Positions 11,895 through 23,834 of a stretch of DNA of 26,317 nucleotides are shown in pieces. This DNA comes from Candidatus Thorarchaeota archaeon. Its GTDB lineage: Archaea > Asgardarchaeota > Thorarchaeia > Thorarchaeales > Thorarchaeaceae. The notes beneath the pieces were generated by a model, which saw only the letters and a program-made list of their open reading frames with translations, ran no database searches and was not told the DNA's origin. How positions within the stretch are numbered: position 1 is the stretch's first letter; the number at the start of each line of letters is the position of its first letter. Both the position numbers and the translations under genes were made by a program. The stretch lies in assembly GCA_046758445.1 (NCBI GenBank), contig JBHIAE010000040.1, positions 1-26,317 on the forward strand, given 5' to 3'.

Positions 11895-12003
11895 TGGCGG
11901 GCTCGGCGGGATTTGAACCCGCGGCCCTTCCCCGATACAAGAAGAAATCATCTTGTTCTTCAGGTTAAAAGCCTGCTGCGCTACCTAGCTGCGCCACGAG
12001 CCC
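11895..12003 (-). tRNA. tRNA-Lys (UUU) with a ~32-nt non-canonical intron near 43/44; CCA encoded
   Basis: Acceptor GGGCTCG/CGAGCCC, D stem GCGC/GCGC, anticodon arm GCAGG-CTTTTAA-CCTG, T arm GCGGG-TTCAAAT-CCCGC. Extra sequence at about 11928-11959 contains an ACAAGA/TCTTGT hairpin. Confidence 0.93.
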
Positions 12004-16683: not shown

Positions 16684-17874
16684 TCATTTCACCTTCTTTG
16701 CGAATTCTTGGCCGTATTCAAATGCATTCTGCAGCTCGTCATCACTTGGCACCCATTTGACCGTGAGGGGTTCCATAACGATGTCCATCTTGCCCCGCTC
16801 CATTGACTCATGAATTCTCTTGACTGCCCCACCGCCCCAGCCATATGAGCCGAATGCGGCACACTTCTTCCCCGCTGGCTTTAGTACCTCCAGATCCGAT
16901 AATAGAGGAGCCATTGTAGGCAGGATGTCATTGTGAAGAGTGGAACATCCAACAAGGATTCCCTTTGCTTCCAGCAGATCAGCTATGATGTCACCGCGGT
17001 CGTTATGTGGAATGAGTCTGAGTAGAGGTGTCAGGCCTTCATCCTGCACCCCTTCAGCAATCGCACGGGCCAGCATTGTTGTACTCTGCCACATTGTGTC
17101 CCATGCTATCACCACTTTGTCGGTTGTTCGTTCTCCCTTCGCCCATTGCAAGTATCTTGTGACAATCTCAAGCGGGTCCTTTCGCCAGATTAGCCCGTGA
17201 GAGGGTGCAATGACCTTAATGGGTAGATCCAACTTGAGAACTTCCTCAATCTTGCGTTGTACCATGCGGCTCAGAGGCCACAGGATATTTGCATAGTACT
17301 TTTCCGTTTCTCTCCAGAGTGTAACTTGGTCTACCTCGTCTGCAAATCGTTTCTCGGTGGCATAATGCTGTCCAAACGCGTCATTTGGCATGAGAAGCTG
17401 TTCCTCTACATAGTAAGTGAACATTGATTCTGGCCAATGCAACATGGGAGCTTCATAGAATCTCAATGTTTTACCGCCAAGATCAATCTCGTTGCCGGTC
17501 TTTACAGTCTGAATCTTCCAACCGTCGCCATAGTGTTTCTTCAGCTGATCTACAGCTTTCGGAGTGCAGACAAGGGTCGCATTCTCTACAATCTTGAGAA
17601 CGTCAGGTACTGCGCCGGAGTGGTCCATCTCAGTGTGATTTGATATCATATAGCCGATATTTTGGAAGTCAACAACCTCCGATATGCGTTCAAACATTTC
17701 ATCTGAGAAAGGGCCGTAGACTGCATCGACCAATGCTGTCTTCTCCCCAACTACTATGTAGGCATTGTATGTGGTTCCATGATGGGTTGTATAGCTATAT
17801 CCATGGAAATGGCGCACATTGTGGTCAATAGCTCCAACCCAGTATACGTCCTTCATGACTTCAATGGGTTTCAT
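16684..17874 (-). CDS. fprA: Flavodiiron protein (FprA family O2/NO reductase)
   Basis: GTTYNAY, HTEMDHSG, LHWPES, NDAFGQH and PSHG diiron ligands; C-terminal flavodoxin (TMWQSTT, FGSYGWGGGA). Confidence 0.96.
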   Translation of the reverse strand: MKPIEVMKDVYWVGAIDHNVRHFHGYSYTTHHGTTYNAYIVVGEKTALVDAVYGPFSDEMFERISEVVDFQNIGYMISNHTEMDHSGAVPDVLKIVENATLVCTPKAVDQLKKHYGDGWKIQTVKTGNEIDLGGKTLRFYEAPMLHWPESMFTYYVEEQLLMPNDAFGQHYATEKRFADEVDQVTLWRETEKYYANILWPLSRMVQRKIEEVLKLDLPIKVIAPSHGLIWRKDPLEIVTRYLQWAKGERTTDKVVIAWDTMWQSTTMLARAIAEGVQDEGLTPLLRLIPHNDRGDIIADLLEAKGILVGCSTLHNDILPTMAPLLSDLEVLKPAGKKCAAFGSYGWGGGAVKRIHESMERGKMDIVMEPLTVKWVPSDDELQNAFEYGQEFAKKVK

Positions 17875-18133: not shown

Positions 18134-18673
18134 ATGACAATGAGTGTCGATGAGGCCATTAGAGAAAGGAGAAGCGTCAGAGCATACGAGGACCGTCCGG
18201 TTTCGGAAAACCTGATCAGACAAATCATCGAAGCTGCAACATTTGCGCCAAGTGCGAAAAACGGTCAGCAATGGAGGTTCACTGTGCTCATTGGAGATTC
18301 AAAGAAACAGTTCACAGACCTCTACAGGCAAGAACTCGACAGACTGAAGTTTGACTTGGGTTCCTCCTATGGATCCTGCAACATGATGGAGAAAGCCCCT
18401 GTGGTGATAATCGTCTGGAACACGAACGAGAGAGGGTGGAGTACCGAGGTCCATAGCGTGGCTGCTGCAATTCAGAACTTGCTCCTCAAGGCATACTCAC
18501 TAGGTCTGGGAACGTGCTGGATTGGAGACATTTTCTATACCCATAACGCCATTATGGACCATTTCAAGAAACCCTGGAATCTTCTGGCGGCTATCACTGT
18601 GGGGTGGCCAGCAGTGAACCCGAAGATGAAACCCAGACTTTCGGTTGACGAAGTGACGGATTTCTTAGATTAG
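18134..18673 (+). CDS. Nitroreductase family protein
   Basis: RRSVRAY, APSAKNGQQWRF, AAIQNLLLKAYSLGLGTCWIG. Confidence 0.95.
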   Translation: MTMSVDEAIRERRSVRAYEDRPVSENLIRQIIEAATFAPSAKNGQQWRFTVLIGDSKKQFTDLYRQELDRLKFDLGSSYGSCNMMEKAPVVIIVWNTNERGWSTEVHSVAAAIQNLLLKAYSLGLGTCWIGDIFYTHNAIMDHFKKPWNLLAAITVGWPAVNPKMKPRLSVDEVTDFLD

Positions 18674-18768: not shown

Positions 18769-20436
18769 TCATTTGAAATGTGATAGGCTCAAAGCTTGTT
18801 CTGGTGAAATCTCCAGACCTAGTCGGTTCAGCCTTGTCATCTCATCGATTGGAGTCTTGTTCTTGGGGTCTATTGCCAAGCATGCGCCATGGACCATCTC
18901 TGTTCTAAGCTGCCCCTTGGCAATTGGATTGTTTCTCAGGTGTGGTGCGTCCAAGATTCCCTTCCCGACTGCTTGCACGTATGTCTTGGGTTCGATGAGA
19001 GGGTCCCGTGAGGTTCCATCACTCAGTGAATGAACGACTGCAACTAGTAGTTTGGCTTCTTTCACAAGCTCGTTCTTCCGTTTCAGAACTTCCTTGTCAC
19101 CAAGGGGATTTGGAGTTCCGAGAAGACAGTCATGAATGACCCTTCGTGCAATCTTGCAACTCTCAATGATCTCTTCTGCAGTTGCAGCGTGATCAGCCTC
19201 ACAGAATCCCACAACGTGTACAATATGCGGATTCAGCAACATTCCAGTATAGATTGAAGATGATAGCTGACCCTTACCCATGTCAAGGTCAGGTGGATAA
19301 GAAAAGAGTCCAGGCCTTACCTGTCTAATAGAGAGAAAACTGTGATCATGCAAGGACTCAACTAGCTCGATCTTTGCAAGCATCTTGGCAAGATCCATCT
19401 TAGGGGAGGTTCCAAGGGGTGTGTTGAGCATGTATTGTGCGACATAGTGCCGGACACCAGCTGCCTTCGCATTGTATGCAGAGAGATATGCCATTGCAAC
19501 TGCAATTGTATCATGAGCGCTTCTCAGGCTCCAATGATGAGGCTCATTGATCTCAACTGGAATGTCGTGTTTTGCATGCCATCGGTGGTTTTGCTGATTC
19601 TCAGTCATTGCTTCCTCAAGAGGCCTCTTGCTCCTCCCATCTAACTCACTGTACCACAACAGAGGAGTTGCACACCATGCGTTGTTTATAGTTTCTTTCA
19701 ATAGCTCTGCCCAGCGTATCAGGTCACGTGTACCACTGTAACATCTTAGGAGAGGGTAGTTACCTCTTCTTGAGGCCTCAAAGAGTCGTTGCAGTTCTTC
19801 GGTTTCTCTGAGTGGGACTCCTCCATCGCCCTCCAGACTCTCGTCCATCTCGGACGGGTGAAAGAATGACTCCTGTGCACTTTGATCTGGGCCGATTGAA
19901 ATCACATCTAGGACTGATGCCCTCGCTATTCGTGCCACACCATGCACTGTTTCTTCAACAGATGATAGACCGAAATGGTGTCTCAAGAGTGGTATCGGGC
20001 TCTTAATGGCGATTCTTGTCATTAGATCTTGAGGATTCTTCTCGCCGGGGTGCATCTGCGTACATCCACGGAGAAATCCTAACGTATCTCCATCAGTGGA
20101 AAAGCCGGTGAAGATCTCCTCAAACAATCCTATACTCTCTGCAATCGGTCTGATTGGTGCTGTGCAGCCAAGTAACCACCTCTTCGTTTCCAGATCGTTT
20201 TTAGCCACGGCTTTCTTCAGGTCCTTGAGGAGCCTTGTCGCACTCACCGCAGTGAGTCTGTAGCTTACGCCAACAACGTCAGGGTCGTGCTTCTTGACTT
20301 GGATTATCAGCTCATCAATGGGGGTTGCAGGTCCCAAGAATAGAGTTTCATGACCTTCTTCCTCTGCCAGAACGAGAAATCGAAGAACCCCGGCCACATG
20401 GACACAGTTTCCAATGGCGGCCCCTAGAATCTTCAC
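18769..20436 (-). CDS. Cobalamin-binding protein: N-terminal B12 Rossmann domain plus a putative mutase-type barrel
   Basis: GNCVHVAG (DxHxxG variant), LFLG..TP and VVGVSY in the N-terminal ~120 aa; ~430-aa C-terminal domain with HVVGFCEADHAAT; GTGA overlap with the upstream gene. Confidence 0.8.
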   Translation of the reverse strand: MKILGAAIGNCVHVAGVLRFLVLAEEEGHETLFLGPATPIDELIIQVKKHDPDVVGVSYRLTAVSATRLLKDLKKAVAKNDLETKRWLLGCTAPIRPIAESIGLFEEIFTGFSTDGDTLGFLRGCTQMHPGEKNPQDLMTRIAIKSPIPLLRHHFGLSSVEETVHGVARIARASVLDVISIGPDQSAQESFFHPSEMDESLEGDGGVPLRETEELQRLFEASRRGNYPLLRCYSGTRDLIRWAELLKETINNAWCATPLLWYSELDGRSKRPLEEAMTENQQNHRWHAKHDIPVEINEPHHWSLRSAHDTIAVAMAYLSAYNAKAAGVRHYVAQYMLNTPLGTSPKMDLAKMLAKIELVESLHDHSFLSIRQVRPGLFSYPPDLDMGKGQLSSSIYTGMLLNPHIVHVVGFCEADHAATAEEIIESCKIARRVIHDCLLGTPNPLGDKEVLKRKNELVKEAKLLVAVVHSLSDGTSRDPLIEPKTYVQAVGKGILDAPHLRNNPIAKGQLRTEMVHGACLAIDPKNKTPIDEMTRLNRLGLEISPEQALSLSHFK

Positions 20437-21626
20437 GTTTCATCCACCTCCAGTCCTGGGATATCCCATACCTCATCGAAGTCTGGATAGTCAACAGGCA
20501 AGCGACCTGTTCGGACGTATTCCTTGACTTCACGAGGGCTCAGACCTTCAAGACCCATGCTCTCTAGATTGCGTCCGCTCTCCCAGAAGTCTATTCCATA
20601 GAGTTGGCATGCAATATTGATTACAGAGTCTATAGCTGGAGTTTCGATTCCGATAAGTTTGCCAAGATTGGAAATGGGCACTAGACCTGTGGGAACATCT
20701 TCCAGTACATAGCGATGTTCCAAGGATGAAGGACTTCCAACTCCATCGTATGCATCAATGCTCTGAATACACTCGCATAATGTGGCTCCTTTCGCGTCAT
20801 ACGTTCTTCTCAGCCATTCTAGTAAAGACAAAGGTTGGGCGCAGAACTCTTGAGCAACACTCATTCTCTCAGCGTCCATCTTCTCTATAAGCTGACCCAC
20901 AGTTTCGGAGATTGCATCATGATAGTGATTATACCCACCTTGCCTTGACTCAAGAAGACCAGCAGATAGGATTGTGGGGGTTGGATGTAGCATGGCGCCA
21001 ACATTGTTGAGACTGGTTTCCATTACGTCATCTGCTAGCTCGAATGGGAGAGGAAGTCGATTCAGACTCTTCAGAAGCCGATGATTGTCGGACGCTGGAA
21101 ATGCACTTATTCTGACGCTATTCTTGATCTTGGAAATCAATACCGAGTTCGGCCCAGTAGTCCTTGACACAAAACTGAAGGTCTGCGCCTCTCCCAATAG
21201 AAGGTCGTCGACGTTGGAGTTTGATCTCAATATTCCGGCAAACTCAAGAACACCACCAGTTCGACCGGGCATTAGAAGCACTGTCTGCCCCGGTTCAAGG
21301 TGAGGACCCATGGTATCGGCGAAGAATGTATGTGCCTGAGCTGGTACTGAAACAACGAGAATATCTCTACCATCAATGGCCTCCTTCATATTGTCTGTGA
21401 CACGCGAGATGTGTGCAAATCCTTCGACAAGACCGTGAGCTTCGATGCCTCCTCTGTCGGATATCCCCTTGACATTCTCGATACTACGGTTGTAGAGAGC
21501 AACATCAAGACCGTTTATGGAGAGATAGCTAGCAAGGCCTCTGCCAGCGTGTCCTGCACCCAGGACAGCAACCCTGACAGGACCTGATGTGTACTTCTCC
21601 GGCTCTTTCCATGGCATGAGGTTCAT
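20433..21626 (-). CDS. NAD(P)-dependent opine (octopine/nopaline) dehydrogenase family protein
   Basis: VLGAGHAG Rossmann fold, PGRTGG, EAQT, LNNVGAMLHP, RYVLEDVPTGLVP; GGAGG SD. Confidence 0.92.
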   Translation of the reverse strand: MNLMPWKEPEKYTSGPVRVAVLGAGHAGRGLASYLSINGLDVALYNRSIENVKGISDRGGIEAHGLVEGFAHISRVTDNMKEAIDGRDILVVSVPAQAHTFFADTMGPHLEPGQTVLLMPGRTGGVLEFAGILRSNSNVDDLLLGEAQTFSFVSRTTGPNSVLISKIKNSVRISAFPASDNHRLLKSLNRLPLPFELADDVMETSLNNVGAMLHPTPTILSAGLLESRQGGYNHYHDAISETVGQLIEKMDAERMSVAQEFCAQPLSLLEWLRRTYDAKGATLCECIQSIDAYDGVGSPSSLEHRYVLEDVPTGLVPISNLGKLIGIETPAIDSVINIACQLYGIDFWESGRNLESMGLEGLSPREVKEYVRTGRLPVDYPDFDEVWDIPGLEVDET

Positions 21627-21639
21627 ACCTCCGCCTCAA

Positions 21640-21799
21640 CTCGCAAACTCGGCCCTTATCAGTCGCCCCGGTGAACGAATACACCATAAGTTGGACCGAC
21701 GTGGTCTAGAAGGACCAAGGCACGTAAATTGTCGATGCGGTCTCTCTATGGACTCTCTTTTGCCATACTTTACCGAGATACCATTATTAGATTTGCGAA
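21640..21799 (-). promoter_or_regulatory. Candidate structured 5' leader of the opine-DH/B12 operon
   Basis: Nested helices TTCGCAAAT/GTTTGCGAG, CTCGGT/ACCGGG, CCATAG/TTATGG, GACCG/CGGTC, ACGTG/CACGT, ending a few nt before the GGAGG SD. Confidence 0.45.
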
Positions 21800-21992
21800 A
21801 TCGACAGTTGCCGAAGCGTGGTACGCATTGTTAAGGGAAGAATGGTCGAAGTAGCAGGATTTAGACGGTATAGGACATGGTCAAGCGGCTCATTCATCGT
21901 TAGGTCAAAGTACGATCCAGGCTATTGTTTCTTGTAAAGAACAAGAGGATTCTGTGATGATCCTTTTGTGTTTTATTGTGAAGAGAGAGCAC

Positions 21993-22880: not shown

Positions 22881-23834
22881 ATGGTAAGAGAGTATAGAGG
22901 AAGAAGCAATCGGGAAATTAGCAGAGAAACGTGTCTTAGTTGTGGAGGAAACTTCTTCACAAAGGACCGAACTCGCGGAGAGAGAGTATGCACATCTTGT
23001 GGGCTTATTGCTTCAGACCATAATCTTGATAGGGGACCCGAGTGGAGAGCGTTCACTGCAGAGGATAGAAAAGCACGAGAACGAACTGGGGCGCCGATGA
23101 GGTTTAGATTTGCTGATAAGGGACTCTCCACTACGATTGACTGGCGGAACAAGGACGCTTCGGGTAGATCCATTACGGGACACCGCCGAGCCGCAATCTA
23201 CAGGATGCGAAAATGGCATGTCAGAAGTAGAACCCGTGCTAACGACTATAGGAACTTGATTTCTGCAATGAGCGAGATGGAGAGGCTGGCCTCGCAGCTT
23301 GCAGTTCCACGTGAAACACAAGAAACTGCTGCTTTGATTTATAGAAAAGCTCTGAAGAAGAAACTAGTTAGGGGTAGGAGTATAGACGCTCTTGTAGCCG
23401 CTTCAGTATACCTTGCATGCAGGATGCATCGAATTCCAAGACGACTTGATGAGGTTGCAGTCGAGTCAAGGGCCACCAGAAAGGAGGTCGGTCAATCTGT
23501 ACGGCTTGTCTTGTCCCAATTGAATGTCAGTGTGCCGGTAGCTTCAGCAAGGGACTTGATACCCAGACTATCTTCGGATCTTGGTTTCAAGGGAGAAACT
23601 GTGAAGAAGGCTACGGAGATAATCGTCAAGGCGAGGAAAAAGGGTATCACGATAGGTAAGGACCCAGGGGGCATTGCGGGGGCTGCATTGTACATCGCGG
23701 GTATTCTCGAAGAAGATAAGCGCACCCAGAGAGACGTGGCTAGAGCAGCACATGTAACAGAAGTGACCATTCGCAACCGATACAAGGACCTTGTCCACTC
23801 CCTTGGGATATCATTTGGAATAGATTCTAAGTAA
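22881..23834 (+). CDS. tfb: Transcription initiation factor IIB (TFB), probably a paralogue
   Basis: CLSC..CTSCG Zn ribbon, GPEWRAF B-reader, two cyclin repeats (RGRSIDALVAASVYLACR; GKDPGGIAGAALY), VTEVTIRNRYKDL HTH. Confidence 0.97.
   Translation: MVREYRGRSNREISRETCLSCGGNFFTKDRTRGERVCTSCGLIASDHNLDRGPEWRAFTAEDRKARERTGAPMRFRFADKGLSTTIDWRNKDASGRSITGHRRAAIYRMRKWHVRSRTRANDYRNLISAMSEMERLASQLAVPRETQETAALIYRKALKKKLVRGRSIDALVAASVYLACRMHRIPRRLDEVAVESRATRKEVGQSVRLVLSQLNVSVPVASARDLIPRLSSDLGFKGETVKKATEIIVKARKKGITIGKDPGGIAGAALYIAGILEEDKRTQRDVARAAHVTEVTIRNRYKDLVHSLGISFGIDSK

Follow-up and report, generated by a model that had tools for sequence, protein, structure and literature searches.

Glutamate mutase (GlmS/GlmE, EC 5.4.99.1, of Clostridium cochlearium; PDB 1cb7, 1i9c and 6h9e; accessory protein GlmL/MutL) is an adenosylcobalamin (AdoCbl)-dependent isomerase built from a B12-binding Rossmann domain with a histidine ligand and an SxL motif, and a barrel with a C-terminal subdomain, divided between two subunits. 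Lysine 5,6-aminomutase (KamDE) and ornithine 4,5-aminomutase (OraSE) have the same architecture of AdoCbl barrel and Rossmann module. In methanogens, the AblA/AblB route to N-epsilon-acetyl-beta-lysine uses a radical isomerase to make a non-proteinogenic isomer and a second enzyme to cap its charged group, giving an inert solute. A further, predicted B12-dependent family with a distant N-terminal B12-binding domain was described from 11 bacterial genomes, in which its gene was 'always adjacent' to a pfam02317 opine dehydrogenase (ODH) gene, with Ddl and asparagine synthase genes nearby; its function was left open and experiments were called for (Zhang, Rodionov, Gelfand and Gladyshev, 2009, BMC Genomics 10:78, PMC2667541). 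ODHs from hot springs (mODHs), reported with no genomic context and no B12 partner, prefer L-Asp and L-Glu with pyruvate and mostly use NADPH; they lack the Asp34 and Asp36 of the Arthrobacter enzyme ArODH, and double mutants show that the combination of Arg at ArODH position 111 and Gly at 198 turns the preference towards these two acidic amino acids, again with pyruvate (Telek et al., 2024, PMC10787698).

Here, we describe a member of the 2009 family and its ODH partner from Candidatus Thorarchaeota archaeon (contig JBHIAE010000040.1 of GenBank assembly GCA_046758445.1; the whole stretch analysed, 26,317 nucleotides (nt) long, is called the window). The B12 protein, P0001, combines in one chain what GlmS/GlmE divides between two, and has CxHxxG where those have DxHxxG; unlike glutamate mutase, its gene has no methylaspartase neighbour and is paired with the gene of an ODH, P0002. 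We propose a pathway in which opine formation is followed by radical rearrangement and, optionally, by amidation to give a small solute, a reading to which we assign a probability of roughly 55%. The GlmE fold, archaeal members, ODH specificity and riboswitch link described below are not part of the 2009 paper. An original prediction for this locus, made by a model from the sequence letters without database searches, had proposed a radical rearrangement acting on an amino acid or opine; our results support that reading, the chemistry of which we infer.

Fold and substrate site of the B12 protein

An AlphaFold2 model of P0001, built on 35 sequences (predicted local distance difference test score 93.1, predicted template modelling score 0.90), was searched with Foldseek, which ranked GlmE first (E 3e-14), followed by lysine 5,6-aminomutase, ornithine 4,5-aminomutase, methylmalonyl-CoA mutase (MCM), IcmF and HCM. 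VIA-align placed residues 130-538 of the model on residues 40-444 of GlmE chain 1cb7_B with Z 32.3 over 377 amino acids (aa) at a root-mean-square deviation of 3.1 Å, compared with Z 30.8 for KamD, 27.5 for OraE, about 22 for MCM and 16-18 for pterin-binding and other barrels. A hidden Markov model of the C-domain searched against PDB sequences returned no mutase and only noise at E >0.6, so that profile-profile and fold comparison were needed; hhalign of the C-domain with true GlmE, represented by four authentic sequences from Clostridia genomes, gave 96.3% (E 1.7e-9, 361 columns). The Pfam family PF06368 (Met_asp_mut_E) matches P0001 at 18.8 bits (E 6e-4), below its cut-off of 26.6, and is cleared by the relative P0139 (27.5 bits); the language-model neighbours of P0001 are methylaspartate mutases (0.93). 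The C-domain is a mutase barrel, with AdoCbl isomerases as its matches and GlmE as the best of them, and not a methyltransferase. The original prediction had anticipated this from an EA-containing motif that it likened to the last strand of mutase barrels: both motifs that it quoted are in the translation (LLRHHFG at residues 150-156, HVVGFCEADHAAT at 407-419), and the EA of HVVGFCEA aligns with GlmE E330-A331.

Individual residues were mapped through the GlmE of locus L091, because it keeps the C. cochlearium numbering. In GlmE, R66, R100 and R149 hold the two carboxylates of the substrate, E171 touches its amino group, and E330 (with K326) contacts the adenosyl ribose. By hhalign, E330-A331 correspond to E413-A414 of P0001, whereas R66 is replaced by H154, R100 by Q188, R149 by Y233, E171 by C255 and K326 by V409. 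Five arginines (R152, R231, R268, R305 and R374) are invariant or nearly so in the family, and arginines stand two residues upstream of two of the GlmE claw sites in this remote alignment. The residue on the cofactor side thus appears to be retained and the substrate site rebuilt, being richer in conserved positive charge and having a small residue at the place that contacts the free amine in GlmE; such a charged site would suit an N-substituted tricarboxylic substrate, as far as a remote alignment can indicate. P0001 is predicted to be a GlmE-type isomerase but no strict glutamate mutase, because the residues that define the substrate of the latter appear to be replaced.

Gene 2 had been described in the original prediction as an N-terminal B12 domain fused to a second domain, and this layout is borne out, with about 425 aa in the C-terminal part. 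PF02310 matches residues 2-74 at 31.8 bits, 0.3 below the cut-off of 32.1, and the family profile matches solved corrinoid domains (4jgi, E 1.2e-8; the Aeropyrum mutase domain 2yxb, E 4.9e-6), to which, with 1y80, residues 1-126 superpose at VIA Z of about 16. H13 is nearly invariant in the family alignment, and G16, S58-x-x-L61 and SYRL are conserved. Of 83 locus proteins, 78 have Cys two positions before the histidine and the other 5 have Asp, as do distant relatives (DxHxxG).

Indirect signs of AdoCbl chemistry come from relatives and from the genome. The distant relatives P0157, P0160 and P0162 are fused to a C-terminal MutL/GlmL reactivase domain (PF13941), MutL/GlmL being the accessory protein of glutamate mutase, and P0139 is fused to an ATP-grasp domain. 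The genome of the archaeon itself encodes a PduO-type adenosyltransferase. P0001 is probably an AdoCbl radical isomerase.

The opine dehydrogenase, its pairing with P0001 and the locus

P0002 matches PF02317 at 146.3 bits (cut-off 30, E 9e-43) and the Arthrobacter N-(1-D-carboxyethyl)-L-norvaline dehydrogenase ArODH/CENDH (1bg6) from end to end (E 7.7e-71), and has the Rossmann motif GAGHAG (GxGxxG) at residues 23-28. HMMER alignment places H214 at the catalytic H202 of ArODH, R122 at A111, G210 at N198, and N46/S48 at D34/D36. The catalytic histidine is thus common to P0002 and ArODH, which favours hydrophobic amino acids and NADH, whereas the Arg at 111, the Gly at 198 and the lack of Asp at 34/36 form a signature that P0002 shares with the mODHs. 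Among the 68 distinct ODHs in related loci, the Arg/Gly pair is present in all 67 that adjoin the mutase gene, P0002 included; the sole ODH without it is a second, non-adjacent copy in locus L006. By this signature, P0002 is predicted to be an NADPH-type ODH for acidic amino acids.

A P0001 relative was found in at least 595 species (scan of one genome per species). The pair recurs in hundreds of anaerobes, in line with the similar pairs in anaerobic bacteria mentioned in the original prediction. Loci were analysed for the best 80 of these species, with 88 loci in all used for adjacency by tblastn. Archaeal carriers among the best 80 are Asgard archaea, Theionarchaea, Bathyarchaeia and Thermoplasmata, and bacterial carriers are many Firmicutes, Aminicenantes, Armatimonadota, Melioribacteraceae, Chloroflexi and Actinomycetota. 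An ODH gene adjoins the mutase gene in 84 of the 88 loci (76 of the 80 species loci), and three of the four unpaired loci are contig ends; pairing is near-obligate. The ODH gene usually comes immediately before the mutase gene on the same strand, the gap being -4 in 23 loci and -1 in 18, and gene order is reversed in L029 and L032. Apparent ODH::mutase fusions in L037 and L049 (open reading frames (ORFs) of 927-961 aa) were rejected as ORF-caller artefacts, the ODH match lying in another frame. Weak PF06368 matches in two bacterial genomes (L089, L090) were likewise rejected as family members, since tblastn with P0001 found nothing there. Within Asgard archaea the mutase is an accessory trait, being present in 56 of 151 sampled genomes of the phylum and 11 of 26 of the same family. 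One genome of that family carries an orthologous gene (G284:C1:128887-130545, 76% identity) with one in-frame TAG, which may mark a pseudogene, a sequencing error or read-through.

The neighbours that recur across phyla are of three kinds: a gene for a Cys-less AsnB-like protein directly downstream (14 loci), a gene whose product resembles the ATP-grasp ligase Ddl (13 loci) and, in Theionarchaea, a gene of the PP-loop NAD-synthase-like type. Other neighbours are lineage-specific, namely 2-oxoacid:ferredoxin oxidoreductase with phosphotransbutyrylase (Ptb) and butyrate kinase (Buk) in Tissierellia, TldD/PmbA in Aminicenantes, and Lgt. In the present genome the AsnB-like gene (P0273) is unlinked, at 1761-3113 of contig C72. 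Its product, which begins MTGIVG where AsnB has MCG, is 68% identical to the protein encoded directly after the mutase gene in Thorarchaeota locus L011; in genome G219, too, the mutase gene is followed by a copy, with the same degree of identity. The AsnB-like gene occurs in 10 of the 151 Asgard genomes, all 10 of which also have the mutase, often on the same contig; this co-occurrence is only suggestive, because related Asgard genomes are not independent.

Contig C72 also has an ORF of 153 aa (1303-1764; L096:578-1039, plus strand) that runs 4 nt into the beginning of the AsnB-like gene and whose residues 87-139 are 42% identical (E 1e-11) to residues 485-539 of P0001, in the C-terminal subdomain of the mutase. 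This ORF may be the remnant of a mutase 3' end, preserved for translational coupling, or a copy of the subdomain that stands alone; taken as a candidate second mutase it was rejected, being only a short C-terminal look-alike. A hydantoinase B/oxoprolinase gene follows on C72. Metal-related genes stand by the pair elsewhere: CorA directly downstream in a Thorarchaeote (L001:9851-10903), and cation diffusion facilitator (CDF) efflux genes with ArsR/MarR regulators in L004 (1376-2512, 6646-6900) and L006 (4453-6623), from Theionarchaea and another archaeon. The pair in the window has no metal-related neighbours.

The window is archaeal, with a TFIIB gene and closest homologues named Candidatus Thorarchaeota. 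Features are collected in Table 1. As had been proposed for this locus, the two genes, both on the minus strand, form an operon with a GTGA overlap that can be read directly in the sequence; each is single-copy in the genome. The GTG start of P0001 is preceded by GGAGGTG about 10 nt upstream and is supported because homologues begin MKILGAAIG. The box CGCAAATCTAATAAT is conserved in the window, L013, L001 and L012, and could serve as promoter for the operon. Within the ODH leader no Rfam match was found for the window, and a structured conserved RNA was rejected as a candidate, six sequences yielding only a 7-pair consensus hairpin (-0.34 kcal/mol). Directly after the mutase gene lies a nitroreductase gene, syntenic in related Thorarchaeota, and beyond it a flavodiiron gene; these are oxidative/nitrosative stress genes typical of anaerobes.

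Table 1. Features of the window, with positions in the 26,317-nt stretch
Feature	Coordinates	Strand	Basis or remark
ODH gene, P0002	20433-21626	minus	397 aa, ATG start; PF02317, 1bg6 match
B12 protein gene, P0001, single-chain B12-binding plus GlmE-like barrel	18769-20436	minus	555 aa, GTG start; AlphaFold2 model, profile matches
GTGA start/stop overlap of the two genes (translational coupling)	20433-20436	minus	...GAA ACG TGA; GTG AAG ATT begins inside
B12-binding Rossmann domain, about residues 1-128, no helical cap	20053-20436	minus	PF02310, 4jgi profile match, VIA
CVHVAG, variant of base-off/His-on DxHxxG motif (C11, H13, G16)	20389-20406	minus	family alignment
GlmE-like TIM barrel and C-terminal subdomain, residues 130-555	18772-20049	minus	1cb7_B superposition, hhalign
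R152-H153-H154, barrel strand 1	19975-19983	minus	hhalign; R152 invariant, H154 nearly invariant
HVVGFCEADHAAT, barrel strand 8, with adenosyl-ribose contact	19180-19218	minus	hhalign; E413 nearly invariant
GGAGG Shine-Dalgarno-like element before ODH ATG	21628-21632	minus	sequence read in leader alignment
ODH leader	21640-21810	minus	last ~200 nt before ATG conserved in close Thorarchaeota relatives L013, L001
CGCAAATCTAATAAT, TFIIB-recognition element (BRE)/TATA-like promoter candidate	21783-21797	minus	~160 nt 5' of ODH ATG; implied leader ~130 nt
Nitroreductase gene	18134-18673	plus
Flavodiiron gene (flavorubredoxin-like)	16684-17874	minus	NF008887, E 1e-138
TFIIB gene	22881-23834
tRNA match	11898-12003	minus	106 nt against a 71-position model; suggests an intron-containing tRNA

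The c-di-AMP riboswitch in bacteria and the proposed pathway

In bacteria the pair is linked to cyclic di-AMP (c-di-AMP). Rfam cmscan of 18 bacterial loci showed a c-di-AMP riboswitch (RF00379, 85-117 bits) just upstream of the ODH gene in 9 of them. Of 40 further carriers searched genome-wide, about 20 have an aptamer no more than a few hundred bases 5' of the ODH start, positions in these 40 being assigned by hand from coordinates. Overall, about half of the 58 bacterial loci have this riboswitch upstream, and in several of the 40 genomes the ODH-upstream aptamer is the only copy or one of two. This riboswitch turns genes off at high c-di-AMP, and its regulon has as its core potassium uptake, osmolyte uptake and cell-wall remodelling, so that a role in making a stress solute is favoured in bacteria and extended to the archaeon by homology only. 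Of the roles offered by the original prediction (catabolism, osmolyte, metallophore), osmolyte-like biosynthesis fits the regulatory evidence best and a metallophore least. A search of 50 carrier genomes for the lithium/sodium riboswitch nhaA-I (RF03057), run with the stricter filters that apply to large batches, gave no match. In one Tepidanaerobacteraceae locus, where a c-di-AMP riboswitch precedes the pair, a c-di-GMP-I-GGC riboswitch (L046:3234-3317) lies a further 3.3 kb or so upstream.

From the observed folds, motifs, gene coupling, specificity determinants and riboswitch link, we propose the following on cofactor, substrate, sequence of reactions and role in the cell. P0002 would form an N-(1-carboxyethyl) amino acid by reductive condensation of pyruvate with an acidic L-amino acid, likeliest glutamate or aspartate. 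In P0001, which would have descended from glutamate mutase stock with its S and E subunits fused, homolysis of the Co-C bond would yield a 5'-deoxyadenosyl radical that takes a hydrogen from the substrate, and a 1,2 carbon-skeleton shift would follow. We favour the opine as its substrate, with N-(1-carboxyethyl)-L-glutamate becoming a 3-methylaspartate-type isomer. Only slightly less likely is the opposite order, in which the mutase would first make an unusual acidic amino acid that the ODH then traps. In a subset of carriers, this genome included, the Cys-less AsnB-like enzyme (that of C72 here) would as a third step amidate one carboxylate with ATP and ammonia. The product would be a small, metabolically inert, acidic or zwitterionic solute, made in many bacteria when c-di-AMP is low, which would point to osmotic or potassium stress. 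AblA/AblB follow the same logic by functional analogy only, AblA being a radical-SAM/PLP enzyme (PLP, pyridoxal phosphate) unrelated in sequence, and the solute role is demonstrated there whereas for P0001/P0002 it is put forward from genomic evidence.

Several observations weigh against this pathway. Neither RF00379 in the 10 archaeal loci tested or the window, nor salt-related neighbours at the archaeal loci or in the window, were found, so that the link to stress is carried over from bacteria. The replacement of the DxHxxG Asp by Cys in this clade makes the presumed cobalamin-binding mode and cofactor form less secure, the PF02310 score of P0001 stays just under its cut-off, and no MutL reactivase was found in the genome (92.7% complete). 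The substrate site could be more GlmE-like than it appears, because the profile alignment is remote and the two-residue offset recurs. The mODHs characterised by Telek et al. (2024, PMC10787698) are slow on L-Asp (kcat 0.1-1.6 per s, KM 0.5-25 mM), which may mean that Asp and Glu act as surrogates for another substrate. Finally, the oxidoreductase, Ptb and Buk genes that adjoin the pair in Tissierellia hint at catabolism.

Other readings and what the pair means

A catabolic module, in which the ODH would work oxidatively or the mutase would feed fermentation and an opine or unusual amino acid would be rearranged and cleaved to pyruvate and an amino acid, seems unlikely to us, though it fares better than the other alternatives. 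The canonical role of GlmE is catabolic (clostridial glutamate fermentation), and in about 11 Tissierellia/Clostridia loci the genes for 2-oxoacid:ferredoxin oxidoreductase, Ptb and Buk precede the pair in the same orientation. Where tested (e.g. L024), however, the c-di-AMP riboswitch separates these genes from that of the ODH, and the pair is therefore a separate transcription unit. The N46/S48 signature of the ODH is of the NADPH type, the recurring partners are enzymes that use ATP to form amides, with neither a transporter nor a lyase among them, and none of the neighbours in the window is catabolic.

It is quite improbable that the B12 domain is degenerate and supports no AdoCbl radical chemistry, or that P0001 is a methyl-corrinoid protein. 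Such a reading could draw on the Cys in the motif, on the PF02310 score, on the best sequence matches of the domain, which are methyltransferase corrinoid proteins (4jgi, 7xcn), and on the label 'methionine synthase' that several sources give to homologues. The PF02607 cap domain of corrinoid methyltransferase proteins is absent by Pfam scan, P0001 beginning directly with a Rossmann strand, and the barrel scores Z 22-32 to AdoCbl isomerases against about 16 to pterin-binding, methyltransferase-type barrels. The ribose-contact Glu is kept, H13, G16, S58 and L61 are conserved, and relatives carry the MutL fusions.

An opine-type metallophore of the staphylopine or pseudopaline kind, with the B12 protein modifying the chelator, is very improbable. 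Metallophore enzymes of the CntM type belong to the same ODH family, and there are ArsR/MarR and CDF efflux genes near the L004 and L006 pairs and CorA after that of L001; these metal genes do not recur across phyla, the recurring neighbours include neither a gene resembling that of nicotianamine synthase (CntL) nor a dedicated exporter or importer, and c-di-AMP control gives no hint of metal limitation. We give as little credence to a PLP-dependent aminomutase of the lysine 5,6- or ornithine 4,5- kind that would move the amino group within a free amino acid ahead of the ODH step: the barrel scores of KamD and OraE (Z 27-31) nearly equal that of GlmE, but these enzymes carry their PLP on a lysine of the B12-binding Rossmann module, no Lys in residues 1-130 is invariant or nearly invariant in the P0001 family alignment, profile homology is to GlmE, and Pfam and the language-model neighbours name methylaspartate mutase.

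The mutase-ODH pair is an uncharacterised but previously flagged module. Full-text searches combining ODH with cobalamin, mutase or c-di-AMP found no later paper on the pair and no functional one, in line with the view of the original prediction that its function is uncharacterised; the pair itself was not newly noticed, having been predicted in 2009 (PMC2667541). An undescribed rearrangement by the P0001 family is very likely, because full mutase architecture goes together with a substrate site that is rebuilt and with a Cys that is unusual for the cobalamin motif. To our knowledge, few AdoCbl-dependent isomerase reactions are known, and the list has become barely longer in decades. More tentatively, and with less confidence than in the pathway proposed above, P0001 may represent a new class of B12 radical isomerases with a Cys-x-His motif and an N-alkylated (opine) substrate, the pair making new opine-derived solutes or potassium counter-ions from Asgard archaea to Firmicutes, under c-di-AMP control in bacteria. 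Because of the ODH partner, the search for the substrate can concentrate on acidic amino acids and pyruvate, and the bacterial c-di-AMP riboswitch offers a testable setting in osmotic or potassium stress. With cultured thermophiles among the carriers (Caldanaerobacter subterraneus, Thermoanaerobacter and Tepidanaerobacter), a question standing since 2009 is directly testable.

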